A stretch of DNA of 64,000 nucleotides, from the sequence record PX853108.1; one strand, given 5' to 3'. The stretch's first letter is position 1. Each line of letters begins with the position of its first letter. Source of the DNA: a phage. A program made the translations under genes and the position numbers. The notes under the pieces are model-generated. The model searched no databases. It had not been told where the DNA came from and saw nothing but the letters and a program-made list of their open reading frames with translations. Below, piece after piece: positions 1,620 to 7,960 of this stretch.

Positions 1620-2438
1620 TTAGTCTTCATTTACTAACTCCTTATCAGCGAACTCTAGTACAGCTTTGTTGTAGCTGGTTCCCTGATAGTTGATGTGGTA
1701 ACCACAGGCATAGGTACGCCCACGTTTGTCATATTTGTGAGCCAGCGAGAAGTTATTACCTTCTTTGGTCACTAGCTCCATTACTTCCTTAGCTGTACGG
1801 CTGTACTTCTCAAAGGCTTTAACACGTTTCTCGTAGTCCTGACGGGTTTCACCTTCTTTAGGTTTATCCATATTAGGACGGGAGTCTTTTACATAGTTAG
1901 CAACGTCCCAGTTAATACAGAGACGTTGATTGTTCATACGGTTGATGTGGTCAAGACAGACGTCCATCTCATGATGGTTCTTCTTGAGGATGATGCTACC
2001 TCTGCTTTCGTAGTAACCAGTATCACGATTACACTTAACAGGCTTAGGAGCACTTACGATAGGTAATGGATACTGGAATGCTTCCAGTTCCATCTGTACA
2101 TCTTCACTAATCTCATAGATAACACCGAACTTGTCGATGGTAGGGTCATAGTTGAAGCAGTCATTCTCTGCCATCTTGTACAGACAGTCAGCGATGTACT
2201 GAGCATCATCTGAGTGACTCATAAGAGAGCCAATCATAGTTTGGATGTCAGCACGTTTATGTAAGGCAATCTGCACCATTGCATCAATGAGCAGCTTATA
2301 ATCAATTTCTAAATAGGCAGCGAATGCCTTAAAGTCAATTTCTTCGGAGTCCTCGAATTCCTTCCTCATGCGAGGCAAGAGCTGGTTTTTATTGAATAGT
2401 TTTTCGAGTTGCTTCTGATGTTCAATAGATGAGTACAT
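1620..2438 (-). CDS. T7-like RNA polymerase small (N-terminal-equivalent) subunit of split RNAP II
   Basis: 272 aa; C-terminal segment YDKRGRTYACGYHINYQG aligns with T7 RNAP DWRGRVYAVSMFNPQG (DxxGR motif region); immediately downstream of hairpin promoter at 2464-2485. Confidence 0.7.
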   Translation of the reverse strand: MYSSIEHQKQLEKLFNKNQLLPRMRKEFEDSEEIDFKAFAAYLEIDYKLLIDAMVQIALHKRADIQTMIGSLMSHSDDAQYIADCLYKMAENDCFNYDPTIDKFGVIYEISEDVQMELEAFQYPLPIVSAPKPVKCNRDTGYYESRGSIILKKNHHEMDVCLDHINRMNNQRLCINWDVANYVKDSRPNMDKPKEGETRQDYEKRVKAFEKYSRTAKEVMELVTKEGNNFSLAHKYDKRGRTYACGYHINYQGTSYNKAVLEFADKELVNED

Positions 2439-2463
2439 CGCTTATTCTCCTAAATGTGATTAA

Positions 2464-2485
2464 TAACCAAAAGCTGCGGAGCAGC
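2464..2485 (-). promoter_or_regulatory. N4 virion-RNAP-type hairpin promoter (AACC-N4-GCTGC GGA GCAGC); predicted +1 at 2468
   Basis: 5-bp stem, 3-nt GGA loop, G at -8 and -11, CC at +1/+2 on template (plus) strand; same architecture as sites at 6918 and 7483. Confidence 0.6.
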
Positions 2486-2525
2486 TATTACCTAACGCTT
2501 AGTCCAAAAGTTAAAGTGACTTCAT

Positions 2526-2702
2526 TTATTGCTCTACTCTCATTGAAATCCAATTGTATAATTTACGCTTTGCATACTCTGCGTTAGCTTCAATTATTTC
2601 TCTGTCTTCTGGATCTTGAGAACCAGACCATGATAGAGCAACTTGTGCTGCTACATGTTTACGTATTAAGGATTGTAGTTGACTGCATTCTTTTTTAGTC
2701 AT
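2526..2702 (-). CDS. small hypothetical protein (58 aa)
   Basis: Manually translated ORF (below 60 aa cut-off of track); ATGA start/stop overlap with upstream gene 2699-3058. Confidence 0.3.
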   Translation of the reverse strand: MTKKECSQLQSLIRKHVAAQVALSWSGSQDPEDREIIEANAEYAKRKLYNWISMRVEQ

Positions 2703-3058
2703 GAGGAGGTTCCCCAGTAGTTGTAAGCATCACCTAAGTATTTACGCCATGCTTCTGGTAATAGCACGTTGCCAGTTACATTAATGAATTGGTATGGGTC
2801 TAAGTAATCATTACTCATGACTTTAAAGTCCCACTGTGGATTAGAAGATGCATAGGCAATGAAGCCCTCAATAAAGCCATAAATAGCACCCTCTTTGATA
2901 CGGTTACCATTGCCATCCTTTACCGGTATGGCAAAGCTATTGCCGTAATGACCATAGGCCATACCCCAGCGAGCACCGTGTTTCTTATAAGCTAATTTGG
3001 CAGCAGCATTAGTATGTTGCCCAAGTACATTGGTAGTGAATACTAAGATTTCTTTCAT
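2699..3058 (-). CDS. hypothetical early protein, possible small Rossmann-like fold
   Basis: 119 aa ORF in tightly packed minus-strand array; motif ILVFTTNVLGQHTNAAAKLAYKKHG; function unassigned. Confidence 0.45.
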   Translation of the reverse strand: MKEILVFTTNVLGQHTNAAAKLAYKKHGARWGMAYGHYGNSFAIPVKDGNGNRIKEGAIYGFIEGFIAYASSNPQWDFKVMSNDYLDPYQFINVTGNVLLPEAWRKYLGDAYNYWGTSS

Positions 3059-3255
3059 TTACATGCCTCTCTGTTGTAAGTATAAGCATCGTGTGTGGAC
3101 ATATTGTTATGATGACGAGTTACTTCTAAGTAAGTAAGAGCATATTCATGGTCACGTTGTTCTTTCTTGGTTCGGCAATGACCACATTTATCATCCCATT
3201 GGGATACATAGCCTTTACCACATTTGCATTGCTTATCCATTAGGATTCTCCACAA
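3055..3255 (-). CDS. Cys-rich zinc-ribbon-like small protein
   Basis: 66 aa; CxC and CxxC pairs (CKCGKG...CGHC); overlaps neighbours by 4 nt. Confidence 0.4.
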   Translation of the reverse strand: MWRILMDKQCKCGKGYVSQWDDKCGHCRTKKEQRDHEYALTYLEVTRHHNNMSTHDAYTYNREACK

Positions 3256-3613
3256 AGTAGTTATACATAGCTTTTACTAGCTTCTCTTTAATAACCTCAC
3301 CATGACAAGGTTTTGGATAACAGAAGCACTGTAAGGCTAATCCTTTCTCGTCAATGGCTTTATTACCCAGACGATTAAGTTCATCCAATACAACTGGATT
3401 CCCTTTATCAATCTGTTCTTGTAACCAGACTATATACTTAGCAATTACTTGCTCTCTGGTTCCATGTTTACCAATGACAAATGGATTACCTAATGGTGAA
3501 CCACGTCCAATATACTCACCTGATTTACCGTGATGTTTATTAACAATGATAATTGGACGGGCAGATACACCCAGTAAAGCATTGGTGTCATCACCTAATG
3601 ACATAATCTTCAT
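3233..3613 (-). CDS. DUF4326-like small protein (assignment from memory of motif)
   Basis: 126 aa; motif GRGSPLGNPF followed by CFCYPKPCHG; domain family recalled, not searched. Confidence 0.45.
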   Translation of the reverse strand: MKIMSLGDDTNALLGVSARPIIIVNKHHGKSGEYIGRGSPLGNPFVIGKHGTREQVIAKYIVWLQEQIDKGNPVVLDELNRLGNKAIDEKGLALQCFCYPKPCHGEVIKEKLVKAMYNYFVENPNG

Positions 3614-3924
3614 GGTTTAAGTACCTGGAATGGGAACACAGGACGTTTACTACGCCACTGGTTCATAGCTAATTCACTAGTTTCAGAACCATCATGTAAG
3701 TCATAGATAAATGAGATTACATAGTCTGGTTCTTCCGGGAAGTTCTCTGTAGAAAATGGTAGACCTGATTCTTTAAGGATAGGAATCAGTGGTGATTCAG
3801 CATTACAGTACAGAGTAAACTCTTCATTGAATGCTTGGCTTGTCTGAGATACATAATCAATATTACGCATCATCTTATCTACATCAGTAAATGTAGCATC
3901 ATGAACTACTAAAATAGTTTTCAT
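3610..3924 (-). CDS. hypothetical early protein
   Basis: 104 aa ORF, 4-nt overlap with neighbours. Confidence 0.45.
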   Translation of the reverse strand: MKTILVVHDATFTDVDKMMRNIDYVSQTSQAFNEEFTLYCNAESPLIPILKESGLPFSTENFPEEPDYVISFIYDLHDGSETSELAMNQWRSKRPVFPFQVLKP

Positions 3925-4112
3925 ACTGGCTCCTTGCCCGTAAATGTTACTACTTTTCCTGACATATTCCGTATGGTTACCTGTGCTGAGTTAACATCAG
4001 CAAATTGCTCTGCAACCCAGTTAAGCATCTCAGGGTCATTATTTAATTGTTTTTTAATCACAGTTTTACTATCTGCTGTTACTAAAGTGATTTCATAATT
4101 TTCAATATTCAT
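3921..4112 (-). CDS. hypothetical early protein
   Basis: 63 aa ORF, operon packing. Confidence 0.4.
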   Translation of the reverse strand: MNIENYEITLVTADSKTVIKKQLNNDPEMLNWVAEQFADVNSAQVTIRNMSGKVVTFTGKEPV

Positions 4113-4366
4113 ACTACTTTCTCCAGTGTTAGGTAGACGTTATTATCGACAATACTCAAATCACAGAAACCAATCTCTTCTTGTCTCCCAGAGGATACCC
4201 AGATATTGTTCTCCGTTAGCTTAGGCTTCTTAGAGAATCCTATTAATGAGGTATTAGCACTCTTATATTGACGAGGTAGTAATGCTATATACTTAACCCA
4301 ATGTGGTACTTGAATAGTATGTTTCATATATTCCACAGTCTTACCAGTAGGGTATGTAATAATCAT
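4109..4366 (-). CDS. hypothetical early protein
   Basis: 85 aa ORF, operon packing. Confidence 0.4.
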   Translation of the reverse strand: MIITYPTGKTVEYMKHTIQVPHWVKYIALLPRQYKSANTSLIGFSKKPKLTENNIWVSSGRQEEIGFCDLSIVDNNVYLTLEKVV

Positions 4367-4723
4367 TTAGTACCTCACAACATATACAGGTTTATTAAGC
4401 TTATTCATGATATCAATCATGTGCTTGGTTCCTTTGGATTTACCATCCCAGAAACATACAGCAGCATCTGCAAATTCACCCATTTCCTGGTTACGTATAT
4501 AACCAGCAGACTTTCTATGCTTATCCCAGTTAGCTGGGAAATTATGAATAGGCATTTTGTTATTAGCCCATAGGCTGTATGCAAGCATATCTGCTCCACG
4601 AGCCATACCACATACTAATTCAGGATTAGGGTCAATCTTACCTTTCTCCACTAAATCCATTAATACGGTAATCATTACTTGGATATTTACGAAGTCTCTG
4701 CCACCAGCTACTATTAGTTTCAT
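4367..4723 (-). CDS. SLOG/LOG-like (DUF2493-type) Rossmann-fold protein (assignment from memory of motif)
   Basis: 118 aa; MKLIVAGGRDF ... GMARGADMLAY ... FWDGKSKGTKHMI pattern typical of SLOG-superfamily small proteins. Confidence 0.45.
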   Translation of the reverse strand: MKLIVAGGRDFVNIQVMITVLMDLVEKGKIDPNPELVCGMARGADMLAYSLWANNKMPIHNFPANWDKHRKSAGYIRNQEMGEFADAAVCFWDGKSKGTKHMIDIMNKLNKPVYVVRY

Positions 4724-4941
4724 TTCTGATAACCTTCTATGAAGTTAGTACGACGAATAAGCTGAGTAGATGCCCTAACAGCCATCTGTTTGAACTCATC
4801 TTTGTGCTGATTTTCCAACACCTTAGCCCATTCTTCATGGTTCCGTCGTTTCTGTAGGATACGACTACACTTCTTATGATTAGCAACTCCTCTTCCTTTC
4901 TTACAGATTGGGCATATTCCATAATTAGTGCTGAACAACAT
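4720..4941 (-). CDS. zinc-finger-like small protein
   Basis: 73 aa; CPICKKG...HKKC motif. Confidence 0.4.
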   Translation of the reverse strand: MLFSTNYGICPICKKGRGVANHKKCSRILQKRRNHEEWAKVLENQHKDEFKQMAVRASTQLIRRTNFIEGYQK

Positions 4942-4946
4942 TTTGC

Positions 4947-5177
4947 TTACTCCTTGGTAATGTGATTGGCAGTATAGAAGTTATTAATCTCTGATTGGGT
5001 AGTATCAGCATAACCGGATACACCGGTTTCTTTATTAACCCATTTATCGAAGCTCTCACTGTATCCAGGCGTACTAACTTTTACCCATGTACTGGTTCCA
5101 AAGATTGTTTTCTTCTCTACTTCTGCACCAATACCACGTTCATTATCTGCAAATCGTATTACTTTATATTTAGCCAC
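4947..5177 (-). CDS. hypothetical early protein
   Basis: 76 aa ORF in array. Confidence 0.4.
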   Translation of the reverse strand: MAKYKVIRFADNERGIGAEVEKKTIFGTSTWVKVSTPGYSESFDKWVNKETGVSGYADTTQSEINNFYTANHITKE

Positions 5178-5478
5178 TTAGTGCCTCCATTAATATTTTA
5201 CGAATAACATTTACATCAGATTCAGTACCAATTAAACCAACAGGCTTACCTGTACTATCTGTTACAAAGGATGCAATCCTTTCCATCTCTGCTGTAATTA
5301 GCTTGTCACCACTAATAAGACGATTACGAAGGTAAGCTTCATAGGCTACTTCTATATCCTCTACTGTGGTTCTTTCATTACGAGCGAATGGATTACTTAA
5401 TGGGAATGGTAAGTGGATACGTATATTCCGGTCAGCTATCTTAGCTGAATGAGGAAGTATACAAATAATTTCATTCAA
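5170..5478 (-). CDS. hypothetical early protein
   Basis: 102 aa ORF in array. Confidence 0.4.
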   Translation of the reverse strand: MNEIICILPHSAKIADRNIRIHLPFPLSNPFARNERTTVEDIEVAYEAYLRNRLISGDKLITAEMERIASFVTDSTGKPVGLIGTESDVNVIRKILMEALSG

Positions 5479-5521
5479 GGTTATTTCTCCTATTTAAATA
5501 CATATCTAACTATTCAAGAAT

Positions 5522-5552
5522 AAAAAATAGGAGCCTCCTATTGGAGGACTCC
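5522..5552 (-). terminator. rho-independent terminator (minus strand)
   Basis: On minus strand CCUCC-AAUA-GGAGG hairpin followed by UAUUUUUUAUU. Confidence 0.5.
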
Positions 5553-5615
5553 CAGTTCTACTAATGCACCATAGGTTAACAGTACAAACATGGTTAATGT
5601 GATAGGCCAGTTCAT
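5538..5615 (-). CDS. candidate 25-aa hydrophobic peptide (MNWPITLTMFVLLTYGALVELGVLQ)
   Basis: Manually translated; start overlaps stop of upstream small ORF as ATGA; stop lies inside terminator stem. Confidence 0.2.
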   Translation of the reverse strand: MNWPITLTMFVLLTYGALVELGVLQ

Positions 5616-5743
5616 TTGAATGCATCCGGGTGATTGAAGGTAATAATCTTACGTACTGGTTCAGATGTCTGTTTCTTAGCAGCCAGTCTCTCCTTCATCT
5701 TCTGTACGTCAGATTTATTACCCATGATTAATGATTTACGCAT
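5612..5743 (-). CDS. candidate small basic protein (43 aa)
   Basis: Manually translated ORF; overlaps end of 5728-5910 ORF by 16 nt so start uncertain. Confidence 0.2.
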   Translation of the reverse strand: MRKSLIMGNKSDVQKMKERLAAKKQTSEPVRKIITFNHPDAFK

Positions 5744-6398: not shown

Positions 6399-6430
6399 AG
6401 TTAAAAATAAAAGACTCCCCGAAGGGAGTC
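6399..6430 (-). terminator. rho-independent terminator (minus strand), UUCG tetraloop
   Basis: GACUCCC-UUCG-GGGAGUC followed by UUUUAUUUUUAA, just downstream of gene 6441-6821. Confidence 0.6.
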
Positions 6431-6440
6431 TAGTGATTGA

Positions 6441-6821
6441 TTAGAAAGTCAGTTTACGAGCATATTTATTCTCGTCTGCTGGGATGTCAGCAGCCTCTGC
6501 TTTCACACGACGAAGTTGAACTTGCAGGTTAATGATACCTTCCTCACCTGGTTCCAGGTTCTGAGCATACGCGATTAACTGTTCCAGCAAGTCGTTCTGT
6601 GCACAACGCATAGCACGGAAGTCAGCATTGCTGCTATTAGTAGGCAGCGGTTCCTGAGTATCCAGTGGAATACCAGTAGGCAGTGAGATGAATTTCTCAT
6701 CATCAGAGCCTTCGTTAGCTACATAACCAATGTTCAGCCAGAACTGAGCTTTTGGTTTGTCAGTTTTAGCAGTGGTAGCAGCAGCGTTAGATTGACCGAA
6801 AGTGAATTTTTGAATAGCCAT
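6441..6821 (-). CDS. early protein (126 aa), first gene of a hairpin-promoter transcription unit
   Basis: ORF in track trimmed to internal ATG at 6821 with RBS GGAGAG; about 100 nt downstream of predicted +1 at 6922. Confidence 0.5.
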
Positions 6822-6917
6822 TTTGTACTCTCCAGATTTATGTGATTTACGGGTGAACTCGTCGGTGAGAACACCCAAACAAAAGGATAAAAGTTCAATG
6901 ATTAGTGGATGCATTTA

Positions 6918-6939
6918 CATCCTTTAGATGCGGAGCATC
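6918..6939 (-). promoter_or_regulatory. N4 virion-RNAP-type hairpin promoter (CATCC-TTTA-GATGC GGA GCATC); predicted +1 at 6922
   Basis: 5-bp stem, GGA loop, -8G/-11G, +1/+2 CC; near-identical layout to recalled N4 P2 CATCC-AAAA-GAAGC GGA GCTTC. Confidence 0.65.
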
Positions 6940-7009
6940 TTTCTTTTAAAGATAGTGCGAGTTAGTTAACTTAAAGTAGATAGTTATCTACTTTTGACTA
7001 TCTATCTAA

Positions 7010-7040
7010 TGTTCAAAACAGGAGACTCCGAAGAGCCTCC
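7010..7040 (-). terminator. rho-independent terminator (minus strand), UUCG tetraloop
   Basis: GGAGGCUC-UUCG-GAGUCUCC followed by UGUUUUG, downstream of gene 7049-7372. Confidence 0.55.
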
Positions 7041-7048
7041 TATGTGAC

Positions 7049-7372
7049 TTATTCTTTAGTCAGGATGTCGATGACTTTGGAATATTCTGCGTTATAGATA
7101 CGAGCGTTCTCTGAATCCTTGCAGAAGTCCTCGATACTTTTCTTACGCAGAGTCTCAGTCATAGCTGTTTCCTCTGCCAGTTTATTAACAAAGGTATGCA
7201 TTTCTAATTTAGTACGAATGGCTTGTTTCTCTGCCATCGTACTAACATATGAATTAAGCATACCTACTGCTTTAGTTGCTGTGCTGAATGTATCTGCAAC
7301 AGTAGTAGCAGCTGAGTTAACAGTACCAAGTAAAGTTCCTGCGGTCATACGTACAGTAGCTTGAGTAGTCAT
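7049..7372 (-). CDS. early protein (107 aa), first gene downstream of outermost hairpin promoter
   Basis: ORF in track trimmed to internal ATG at 7372 with RBS GGAGAT; about 115 nt downstream of predicted +1 at 7487. Confidence 0.5.
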   Translation of the reverse strand: MTTQATVRMTAGTLLGTVNSAATTVADTFSTATKAVGMLNSYVSTMAEKQAIRTKLEMHTFVNKLAEETAMTETLRKKSIEDFCKDSENARIYNAEYSKVIDILTKE

Positions 7373-7482
7373 GATGATATCTCCAATAGTTAATGAATAA
7401 TGAGGTTGCCTGTGGATGCACAGGCACATCGTAAGGGATACATGTCCAATGGCTCATGAGATAAGGAGCTTACGATCTCGCA

Positions 7483-7504
7483 TATCCGTAACATGCGGAG
7501 CATG
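7483..7504 (-). promoter_or_regulatory. N4 virion-RNAP-type hairpin promoter (ATATCC-GTAA-CATGC GGA GCATG); predicted +1 at 7487
   Basis: 5-bp stem, GGA loop, -8G/-11G, +1/+2 CC on template strand. Confidence 0.65.
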
Positions 7505-7960
7505 TAGACGAACGAAGTTCGTCAAAAATGTTTTATAAAGATGTAGGCGCGTGCGCAAGCCGAAGGCTTGCGTGCGTGCCGAAGATATGCACATAAGCCC
7601 ATGGGCTTGCTTGCAAGCCTAGTGTGTGTAACGTGTAAGGTGGGGTAGGGTAGTGGCTACACGGTCAACATACCGGGGGGGATGGTTGAGTGTAAGGGTG
7701 TAGCCCTAGGTGTAACACTATAGCCATACATAGCTATCACAATTTTGACATGCAAAAATATTATAGGCACTATCTCTATAAGCAGATAACTTTGAGGTAC
7801 TAACCTGAAAGATGGTTGAGGTATCTATCCTCTATTCATCATAGCGTTTGATACTTAAAACCTCATACAGCTTACCATTTACAAGTAATGGTCCTCCCAC
7901 TTCTATGAAAGCCAGACTGTGTACTATCACTGGTTCAGGTAAGCCCTTGACTGTTACATA
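7505..7960. other. non-coding, locally GC-rich, hairpin-dense region; candidate genome terminus / terminal-repeat or origin region
   Basis: No ORF; hairpins GACGAAC-GAA-GTTCGTC (7507-7523), GCAAGCC-GAA-GGCTTGC (7555-7571), AAGCCC-ATG-GGGCTT; G-run ccggggggg; sits just upstream of the outermost early promoter. Confidence 0.3.

Follow-up and report, generated by a model that had tools for sequence, protein, structure and literature searches.

A predicted ADP-ribose-processing gene cluster in the early region of a Gamaleyavirus-type N4-like coliphage

Introduction

The question raised by the early region of phage sequence record PX853108.1 is what its run of small genes, several of them related to families from nucleotide-centred conflict systems, does for the phage. 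A stretch of 64,000 nucleotides of this record (the window, to which all coordinates refer unless stated otherwise) was analysed. The original prediction, made without database searches, described positions 2699–4941 as a cluster of small Rossmann-like and zinc-ribbon proteins and as a candidate host-takeover or anti-defence module, directed perhaps against CBASS, Thoeris or Pycsar systems. The genome that carries the cluster is that of a Gamaleyavirus-type N4-like coliphage, and all cluster open reading frames (ORFs) lie on the minus strand. On balance we favour the reading that the cluster is the local form of a conserved N4-like early-region module (gp12–gp13–gp14 plus a gp9 paralogue, with an acquired SLOG gene) and that it acts on the nicotinamide adenine dinucleotide (NAD)-derived ADP-ribose chemistry of host anti-phage systems. 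The genes on which this reading turns are listed below; assignments to N4 genes and the identities given are from BLASTP against the N4 early region.

3233..3613, minus strand: DUF4326 protein, 126 amino acids (aa), homologue of N4 gp12 (95% identity); Pfam PF14216, motifs GRGSPLGNPF ... CFCYPKPCHG
4367..4723, minus strand: stand-alone YAcAr-family SLOG protein, 118 aa; Pfam PF10686, motifs IVAGGRDF ... GMARGAD ... FWDGKSKGT
2699..3058, minus strand: predicted macro-fold protein of the TARG1/DarG-like type, 119 aa, homologue of N4 gp14 (47% identity); A1S_2505 family, NCBIfam NF049995
3055..3240, minus strand: CxC...CxxC zinc-ribbon-like protein, 61 aa, homologue of N4 gp13 (69% identity); phrog_13804, E = 9e-33, residues 6–66
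5170..5478, minus strand: degenerate DUF4326 paralogue, 102 aa, homologue of N4 gp9 (76% identity); found with a custom DUF4326 hidden Markov model (HMM), outside the range of the original prediction

DUF4326 and SLOG proteins

Both family assignments that had been made from remembered motifs passed the Pfam thresholds. The protein encoded at 3233–3613, picked out by its GRGSPLGNPF ... CxCxPxPCHG signature, matched DUF4326 (PF14216) over profile positions 4–82 of 82 with E = 1.4e-21 and 77.3 bits (gathering cut-off 25). Residues R37, G42, N43, P44, R53, Y60, C96, C98, P100, C103 and H104, which are invariant or at least 90% conserved among 80 diverse representatives, are all present. An exhaustive profile-free search returned 5,005 DUF4326 clusters at 50% identity, spread over phages, giant viruses and bacteria, and the domain was found in 2.3% of 50,697 phage records (base rates were counted over whole phage records). 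No biochemical data on DUF4326 were found in a literature search.

Within a putative Rossmannoid fold, the C98-x5-H104 loop appears to sit between a strand and a helix, which we take to be the position at which tyrosine and dual-specificity phosphatases and rhodaneses carry their Cys loop. The Cys-based phosphatase/rhodanese superfamily (PTEN, dual-specificity phosphatases) has C-x5-R at this point, whereas DUF4326 has C-x5-H. The best fold match of DUF4326 is an RNA-binding domain, and the nearest known comparisons are the C-terminal domain of RapZ together with PTEN and the dual-specificity phosphatases, for which the structural scores are low. The three Cys and one His (C96, C98, C103 and H104) could form a zinc site instead of a catalytic Cys loop. 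In T4-like and jumbo phages (Klebsiella phages Matisse, PMBT1 and vB_KpnM_05F, Escherichia phage UB) DUF4326 adjoins ribonucleotide-reductase genes, and the misleading label 'NrdA-like' that the family bears in PHROGs and in some GenBank records probably stems from these neighbours.

The protein encoded at 4367–4723, described as SLOG/LOG-like in the original prediction, matched YAcAr (YspA/cpYpsA-related SLOG, PF10686) over positions 1–66 of 66 with E = 3.2e-10 and 40.1 bits (cut-off 28.2). The motifs of the SLOG superfamily are conserved, namely G7, G8 and R9 (Gly-rich loop following strand 1), GxAxGxD (following strand 2; G39, A41, G43, D45) and, towards the C-terminus, W92-D-G-K-S-K-G-T99; in the family alignment G7, R9, G39, A41, G43, D45, W66, A73, G74, N78, M81, G98 and M102 are invariant. 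The catalytic Glu of LOG is absent: GTKH (His101) replaces GTxxE, and the corresponding residue is Q, H, G, N or D in relatives. A binding role or a different chemistry would be as likely as LOG-type hydrolysis. When the three key proteins were compared with PDB chains, as single sequences and as profiles, nothing significant was found except weak matches of the SLOG profile to DprA proteins, its only PDB matches (3UQZ, E = 0.013, in register at the first two motifs).

The SLOG gene was present in 873 of the 50,697 phage records (tblastn; base rate 1.7%). It is an accessory gene, because it is missing from N4 and from ECBP1-type relatives. The ratio of nonsynonymous to synonymous substitution rates (dN/dS) was 0.10, 0.36 and 0.45 for the three available pairs. 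In Proteus phage 3H10_20 (locus L005, 3804–5405) a related SLOG gene directly follows genes for a nucleoside 2-deoxyribosyltransferase and a PnuC-like nicotinamide-mononucleotide transporter; judged by these neighbours, this is another NAD-linked setting for the SLOG family.

Domain fusions and gene neighbourhoods

The SLOG, DUF4326 and macro families were re-derived here independently by sequence searches. Among 28 multidomain close homologues of the DUF4326 protein, the fusion partners assigned by Pfam were YAcAr SLOG (seven), DprA-type SLOG (three), YpsA (one), NADAR (four) and Macro (one); a SLOG-type domain (YAcAr, DprA or YpsA) is thus fused to DUF4326 in 11 of the 28. No cyclic-nucleotide-related domain was found among the partners in this set, and the proposed connection with the cyclic-oligonucleotide systems CBASS and Pycsar was dropped on that account. 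Every contextual link obtained was to NAD/ADP-ribose chemistry, and the context of the cluster points to NAD/ADP-ribose immunity (DarTG, Thoeris-like).

Individual fusions join the families of the window itself. In a 226 aa protein (P0209) the N-terminal half is 60% identical to the window SLOG protein and the C-terminal half is 54% identical to the window DUF4326 protein; its gene lies in a 69.9 kb N4-like contig between gp1/gp2 homologues and RNA polymerase genes, with an intact macro-like gene two genes downstream. Two of the families whose co-occurrence the original prediction had found suggestive, SLOG and DUF4326, are joined there into one protein, at the corresponding early position of a different N4-like phage. 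A second protein (P0227) combines the A1S_2505 macro family with DUF4326 (hhalign probability 99.8%), and in a 75 kb N4-like metagenomic contig (L029, 5978–6430) DUF4326 carries a fused gp13-like zinc ribbon at its N-terminus. The latter contig also contains a 182 aa ORF (6850–7395) in which SLOG-like motifs were seen by eye (GTAGRD ... VSGGAAWADH), with no match to Pfam or to a custom SLOG profile.

Viral contigs were retrieved with the macro family as seed (36 contigs, mostly of ∼70–78 kb, the remainder shorter fragments). Full DUF4326 was found within 8 kb in 19 of the 36 and SLOG in seven. Erwinia phage Tellus and Alcaligenes phage QDWS595 each combine SLOG, DUF4326 and macro-like genes, and Salmonella phage FSL SP-058 has DUF4326 together with SLOG. 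Overall, the neighbourhood recurs in at least four genera of N4-like phages. From these comparisons we take the fusions as independent evidence for a functional link, with DUF4326 as the fusion hub, and consider the co-occurrence of the three families to be not accidental and the link to be real.

Macro-fold protein

The original prediction contained a further small Rossmann-like ORF, for which the best candidate is the ORF at 2699–3058; the other candidate, at 3610–3924, belongs to no detectable family. The macro identity of the former had been missed, as had the loss of its loops. The 119 aa ORF had no Pfam match of any kind and the Pfam Macro model matched none of 37 members of its family, which is why the macro fold was found via structure prediction. 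In a large protein collection 58 relatives were found, with assessable contigs mostly of ∼70–75 kb. An AlphaFold2 model built on the family alignment had a predicted local distance difference test score (pLDDT) of 89.8, and the top ranks in Foldseek were taken by TARG1 and DarG macrodomains (probability 0.90–0.97, template-modelling score ∼0.6). According to the model, the protein has the macro α/β/α fold.

The family consensus reads FVFGSNxAGxHGAGAA ... FAIPTKD ... TRIGCGLAG. Alignment with human TARG1 by hhalign (probability 73%, E = 3e-5; TARG1 sequence checked against the PDB) placed IPTK on LITK, which contains the catalytic K84, and RIGCGLAG on RIGCGLDR. Against NF049995 (A1S_2505 family phage non-structural protein) N4 gp14 scored 153 bits over its full length. 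The window copy scored 83.2 bits (cut-off 45) over positions 1–78 of 109, the match ending there because the RIGCGLAG loop is deleted. N10 is kept in the window protein (FGSN/FTTN motif; equivalence to DarG N22 by motif position only), as is K47 (IPVK) at the position of the presumed catalytic Lys (TARG1 K84, Thermus aquaticus DarG K80), where some relatives have Leu or Arg. HTNAAA replaces HGAGAA (MGAGIA in TARG1), and an eight-residue deletion removes RIGCGLAG.

Judged by the alignment with the TARG1 motifs, these are the two Gly-rich loops with which macrodomains hold the diphosphate of ADP-ribose. Both are intact in N4 gp14 and in more than 30 other members of the family; with their loss, one of the three predicted activities is therefore probably absent here. 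The loop-less gene is nevertheless under purifying selection (dN/dS within 0.02–0.22). In three other loci (L010, L012 and L013) the macro-like genes are otherwise intact and have IPTL for IPTK and HHGGAA or HVGGAA in loop 1; canonical residues have thus been lost more than once in the family. From its closest structures and its zinc-ribbon partner, the intact gp14-type family looks like a DarG/TARG1-type ADP-ribosyl hydrolase. This partner, the gp13-type gene, lies at most ∼250 nucleotides upstream of the macro-like ORF in 12 of the 12 records that contain both, mostly abutting or overlapping it. Its four Cys are conserved in the homologues obtained from 13 locus records, two of them records of N4; the homologues begin at the ATG at 3240, whereas the mechanical ORF extends to a TTG at 3255.

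Degenerate DUF4326 paralogue

Just upstream of the range of the original prediction, a second DUF4326 copy that had been overlooked was identified in the gp9 homologue. The custom HMM matched this ORF over profile positions 14–72 (E = 1e-7), and it is 27% identical to N4 gp12 (E = 1e-7). PLxNPF and the helical core are retained and Leu replaces R37. The paralogue has PVGLIGTESDVNVIRKIL where DUF4326 has LxCxCxPxxCHGDVIKxxL, so that all three Cys and the His are gone. It is kept in 14 of the 36 macro-seeded contigs, N4 included. With dN/dS values of 0.04–0.11 it is under purifying selection.

Locus, relation to N4 and transcription

The remaining genes of the region are the following.

7049–7372, minus strand: gp1 homologue (67% identity to N4 gp1)
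6441–6821, minus strand: gp2 homologue (71% identity to N4 gp2)
5612–5743, minus strand: gp6 homologue (57% identity to N4 gp6)
4947..5177, minus strand: 76 aa ORF, insertion relative to N4; phrog_20151, E = 3e-51; no N4 homologue
4720..4941, minus strand: CxxC...H...C zinc-knuckle-like protein, 73 aa, insertion relative to N4; phrog_6887, E = 1e-42
4109..4366, minus strand: 85 aa ORF, insertion relative to N4; phrog_1972, E = 1.5e-19; in 12 related loci; no N4 homologue
3921..4112, minus strand: 63 aa ORF, insertion relative to N4; phrog_24669, E = 1e-27; no N4 homologue
3610..3924, minus strand: gp11 homologue, 104 aa (81% identity to N4 gp11); 23 close relatives in 5.8 billion proteins
1620–2438, minus strand: gp15 homologue, RNA polymerase II small subunit (66% identity to N4 gp15)

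The gene run extends on the minus strand from ∼5478 to 2526 and is followed by the RNA polymerase II small-subunit gene. The gp9, gp11, gp12, gp13 and gp14 homologues keep the N4 order between gp2 and gp15, in a frame of gp1, gp2, gp6 and gp15 homologues. The interval between gp9 and gp11 is filled by an insertion of five ORFs (from 4947–5177 down to 3921–4112) which have no counterparts in N4 (BLASTP) and which include the SLOG gene and the 73 aa zinc-knuckle protein. At the DNA level, positions 2400–5600 are 86–93% identical to Gamaleyavirus-type N4-like coliphages such as ECBP1, PE007, pSb-1 and St11Ph5, and the cluster ORFs recur among the 78 related phage records matched by this segment. 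In comparisons with five close relatives, pairwise dN/dS was 0.02–0.22 for the DUF4326, macro-like and gp9-like ORFs and 0–0.08 for the RNA polymerase; the three are therefore expressed, constrained genes, and by recurrence and selection the cluster ORFs are real genes and not chance ORFs. The DUF4326 protein is 95% identical to N4 gp12 while its flanking genes are only 47–81% identical to their N4 counterparts, which suggests either very strong constraint or recent exchange between genera. A literature search found no functional data for N4 gp9 or gp11–gp14.

The two Cys-rich proteins that had been read as zinc ribbons both show conserved patterns of metal ligands, CxC...CxxC at 3055–3240 and CxxC...H...C at 4720–4941; in the latter C10, C13, H22 and C26 are conserved in ten related loci, Erwinia phage Tellus included. 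For the gp11 homologue there was no Pfam match and no detectable family beyond close relatives. By eye it resembles a degenerate SLOG, a candidate that was rejected because hhalign gave a probability of 7.5% and aligned no more than the first 22 columns. Over 24 residues the 63 aa ORF weakly matched (E = 3.7e-4) the PHROG of Dmd, the T4 antitoxin that counters RnlA/LsoA, a match that is probably due to chance.

Promoter and terminator candidates were located as follows.

7492..7504, minus strand: N4 P1-type early promoter hairpin upstream of the gp1 homologue, template CATGC-GGA-GCATG
6927..6939, minus strand: N4 P2-homologous early (virion RNA polymerase) promoter hairpin, template GATGC-GGA-GCATC
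2473..2485, minus strand: N4 P3-homologous early promoter hairpin, downstream of the cluster and immediately before the gene for the RNA polymerase II small subunit
6412..6431, minus strand: intrinsic-terminator-like hairpin after the gp2 homologue, 8 bp stem with five GC pairs and then a T-run
5534..5547, minus strand: second terminator-like hairpin between P2 and the cluster, immediately before the gp9-like gene

The promoter hairpins have a 5–6 bp stem and a GGA loop on the template strand and are homologous in sequence and position to those of N4, which lie at N4 positions 90, 559 and 4548 before gp1, gp2 and gp15 and have TCC or TTC as the coding-strand loop. The flanks of the P2 homologue (CTTTAAA.GA.A...GC-TCC-GC...) match the N4 hairpin at 559, upstream of gp2, and the N4 counterpart of P3 at 4548 has an identical GCTGC-TCC-GCAGC stem-loop and flanks. 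These positions agree with the transcription of gp1, gp2, gp15 and gp16 by the virion polymerase (PMC13434306). An additional TTC-loop hairpin is present at ∼7521.

The original prediction placed the cluster downstream of early promoters and among the first transcribed genes. The P1 and P2 homologues do lie upstream. The cluster, however, is situated between P2 and P3 with no early promoter directly before it and with two terminator-like hairpins in between, so that its early expression, by read-through from upstream, is plausible by inference only. Between 1000 and 8600, six sigma-70-like promoter matches were found against 24.2 expected and 15 terminator-like hairpins against 4.2 expected, which fits a region that is not read by the host RNA polymerase. 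The non-coding segment at ∼7540–7800 contains several GC-rich hairpins (e.g. GCAAGCC-TTCG-GCTTGC) and a C-rich tract; from the record coordinates of relatives, the physical left genome end is expected near this segment or slightly beyond it. The window therefore seems to cross the ends of the genome, as a permuted or concatemeric assembly would.

Discussion

Under the favoured reading, DUF4326 is predicted to be a Cys-dependent phosphatase-like enzyme that would take a phosphate off ADP-ribose or off a phosphoribosyl remnant, or transfer it. The SLOG protein would bind an adenine-ribose-containing ligand or cleave its N-glycosidic bond, the candidate ligands being a cyclic ADP-ribose-type signal or, as in DprA, single-stranded DNA. 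In N4 and most relatives the gp14-type macro protein, together with the gp13 zinc ribbon, would act as a DarG/TARG1-like ADP-ribosyl hydrolase; in the genus of the window the loop-less macro protein probably no longer hydrolyses ADP-ribose and would persist as a catalytically inactive partner. Overall, the module would erase ADP-ribose marks, or ADP-ribose-derived signals or toxins, made by host defences of the DarTG or Thoeris-like kind.

In two earlier papers, SLOG, Macro, NADAR and DUF4326 are predicted to form a viral network that processes ADP-ribose derivatives (PMC7824862, PMC9503650), the domains are proposed to share the degradation of host ADP-ribose-derived signals and toxins, and DUF4326 is predicted to act on ribose-linked phosphates of ADP-ribose derivatives (both PMC9503650). 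The fusions and neighbourhoods found here agree with this prediction. The nucleotide-centred conflict module of the original prediction was thus right in kind and is narrowed to NAD/ADP-ribose chemistry. An 'N4-like ART family' named in PMC9503650 was also considered, and the text of that paper gave no basis for linking it to phage N4. Experimentally, a phage NADAR (AdfN; PMC11825919) and a DarG2-like macro protein (AdfM; PMC13309987) reverse DNA ADP-ribosylation by DarT. A genetic lead comes from coliphage DruSM1, in which loss of the 'DprA/Smf' SLOG-type ORF83 lowers plating on hosts with AVAST type III (bioRxiv 10.1101/2024.04.14.589459, preprint); ORF83 is LOG-like and its amoeba-virus homologues are fused to DUF4326 (bioRxiv 10.1101/2025.06.06.658234, preprint).

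Several points weigh against our reading. Both ADP-ribose-binding loops are missing from the macro protein of the window and from all Gamaleyavirus copies, and the SLOG protein, lacking the LOG catalytic Glu, could be a pure binder. To our knowledge no DUF4326 or A1S_2505 protein has been assayed, nor any YAcAr-type SLOG, and function is assigned by context. The neighbourhood counts come almost entirely from one phage family, so that the loci are not independent. PADLOC models (DarG, ThsA and others) matched none of the cluster proteins, and no ADP-ribosyltransferase or NAD-salvage gene was found in the annotation of a close relative. The homology of DruSM1 ORF83 to the window SLOG protein would be by motif description only.

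A tentative alternative is nucleic-acid repair, in which the module would strip ADP-ribose adducts of the DarT1/DarT2 or CmdT type from phage DNA or RNA: a macro or NADAR partner would cut the base–ribose bond, the zinc ribbon and the DprA-like SLOG protein would hold single-stranded nucleic acid and DUF4326 would trim the phosphate-linked remnant. DarG and TARG1 are the closest structures of the macro family, whose presumed catalytic Lys position aligns with TARG1 K84; in every fetched locus with both genes the macro gene is closely preceded by the zinc ribbon, which is once fused to DUF4326. The two domains with a proven ability to reverse DarT marks in phages, NADAR and DarG-type macro (PMC11825919, PMC13309987), are both partners of DUF4326, and DprA proteins and an RNA-binding domain are, respectively, the only PDB matches of the SLOG profile and the best fold match of DUF4326. 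Both ADP-ribose-binding loops, however, are lost from the macro protein here, the Lys is replaced in some members of the family (IPTL in the three loci named above), the DprA match is weak and the literature yielded no DarT-sensitivity data for N4-like phages.

It is possible, if doubtful, that the target is instead a soluble signal. The SLOG protein would then bind or cleave an ADP-ribose-derived messenger (Thoeris-type cyclic ADP-ribose isomers, His-ADP-ribose or N7-cyclic ADP-ribose) or a toxic metabolite (such as ADP-ribose-1''-phosphate), DUF4326 would dephosphorylate the product and signalling immunity would be silenced. Such a role corresponds to the prediction for viral SLOG, Macro, NADAR and DUF4326 in PMC9503650; the ThsA SLOG domain is a sensor of 3'-cyclic ADP-ribose (PMC9503650; bioRxiv 10.64898/2026.03.01.708072), and the SLOG gene behaves as an accessory cassette that some close relatives carry and others lack, as expected for an anti-defence gene. 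No YAcAr protein has a demonstrated ligand, however; the catalytic Glu of LOG is absent and the PADLOC ThsA models do not match the window protein, and the sole genetic lead (DruSM1 ORF83) points to AVAST III, for which no nucleotide signal is known.

The loss of canonical residues allows a further proposal, which we regard as rather improbable. In Gamaleyavirus the ADP-ribose module may have turned in part into selected pseudoenzymes, the loop-less gp14-type macro protein and the gp9-type DUF4326 protein without the Cys/His loop and Arg (the latter also in N4). Instead of working as erasers, these might bind a host ADP-ribosyltransferase or sensor and so serve as decoys or inhibitors, or they might be regulatory subunits for the active DUF4326/SLOG enzymes. 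If true, this would be a counter-defence strategy that is undescribed for macro or DUF4326 proteins.

A role confined to host takeover or metabolism, in which the proteins would tune the nucleotide or NAD pools of the host, or serve phage replication by modifying nucleic acids of phage or host, without any anti-defence function, is quite unlikely. The ribonucleotide-reductase neighbours of DUF4326 in many T4-like phages and the PnuC and nucleoside 2-deoxyribosyltransferase neighbours of SLOG in Proteus phage 3H10_20 are in its favour, as is a link of DUF4326 to DNA-modification and replication components made by Iyer et al. (2021; PMC7824862). The dominance of ADP-ribose-processing domains among the fusion partners and the dispensability of the SLOG gene within the genus, however, fit conflict genes better than core metabolism. 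That the cluster consists of unrelated small early ORFs, neighbours by chance in a gene-dense region, is very improbable: no family could be detected for five of the ten ORFs, the order of the three key genes differs among relatives and neither partner lies within 8 kb in 11 of the 36 macro-family loci, but independent fusions that join DUF4326 to SLOG, to the macro family and to the zinc ribbon contradict it and the enrichment is 10- to 20-fold above base rates.

Among known systems, the closest to the ADP-ribose module favoured here is the network described by Iyer, Burroughs, Anantharaman and Aravind (Viruses 2021, PMC7824862; Viruses 2022, PMC9503650), with which the cluster shares domain families, the type of fusion and neighbourhood, and early or host-manipulation placement. 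The loop-less macro protein, the Cys-less DUF4326 paralogue and the zinc-ribbon link were not found in the available parts of these papers, which also do not mention the N4 gp9/gp12–gp14 locus. The A1S_2505 macro family may have gone uncounted there, being unrecognized by the Pfam Macro model.

The gp14 family shares its fold and closest structural neighbours with AdfM (a chimallivirus DarG2-like macrodomain that clears DNA of the ADP-ribose added by DarT2; Cell Rep 2026, PMC13309987), bacterial DarG and human TARG1. Like the gp14 homologues, AdfM is a stand-alone phage gene, and the intact family (N4 gp14) keeps the N-terminal Asn, the IPTK Lys and both Gly-rich loops. The sequence similarity to TARG1 and DarG is nevertheless marginal, as seen in the hhalign probability, with no Pfam Macro or PADLOC DarG match; Asp125 of TARG1 is Ala in the gp14 family, and the window copy also lacks loops 1 and 2. 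AdfN (phage-encoded NADAR proteins that serve as orphan antitoxins to DarTG1; Nat Commun 2025, PMC11825919) follows the same logic of a phage-borne ADP-ribosyl-glycohydrolase, and NADAR is a recurrent partner of DUF4326, but there is no NADAR gene in the window cluster.

With LOG (Lonely Guy) phosphoribohydrolases and the SLOG sensor domains of ThsA, the window SLOG protein shares the SLOG Rossmannoid fold, a Gly-rich first loop and a C-terminal GxxGT-type motif. It differs from LOG in having His101, at a position variable in relatives, in place of the catalytic PGGxGTxxE glutamate, and from ThsA in not being matched by the PADLOC models. DruSM1 ORF83 is likewise a small stand-alone SLOG-type protein of a coliphage; its described R-N ... 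T motif and the C-terminal DUF4326 fusions of its amoeba-virus homologues match RN(77–78) ... GT(98–99) and the fusions found here, a likeness by description only. Its deletion phenotype comprises small plaques and reduced plating (preprint).

As a concept the cluster is not new, since its families had already been predicted to let viruses undo NAD/ADP-ribose immunity. Added here are the recognition of the gp14 family as a macro domain, the loss of its loops in the genus, the Cys-less DUF4326 paralogue, the zinc-ribbon link and the mapping onto N4; taken together, these five additions make the function of DUF4326 testable. DUF4326 is a large family without a known activity, and its partners are found here as separate small early genes which are also present in the tractable model phage N4 (gp9, gp12–gp14). 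The prediction of ADP-ribose processing can be tested directly in N4-like coliphages with proteins of 12–15 kDa, for which natural controls exist in the form of intact and loop-less macro proteins, Cys-containing and Cys-less DUF4326 proteins and relatives with and without SLOG. If confirmed, it would establish a new enzyme class in phage counter-defence against NAD/ADP-ribose immunity and would help to explain the host range of therapeutic N4-like phages.

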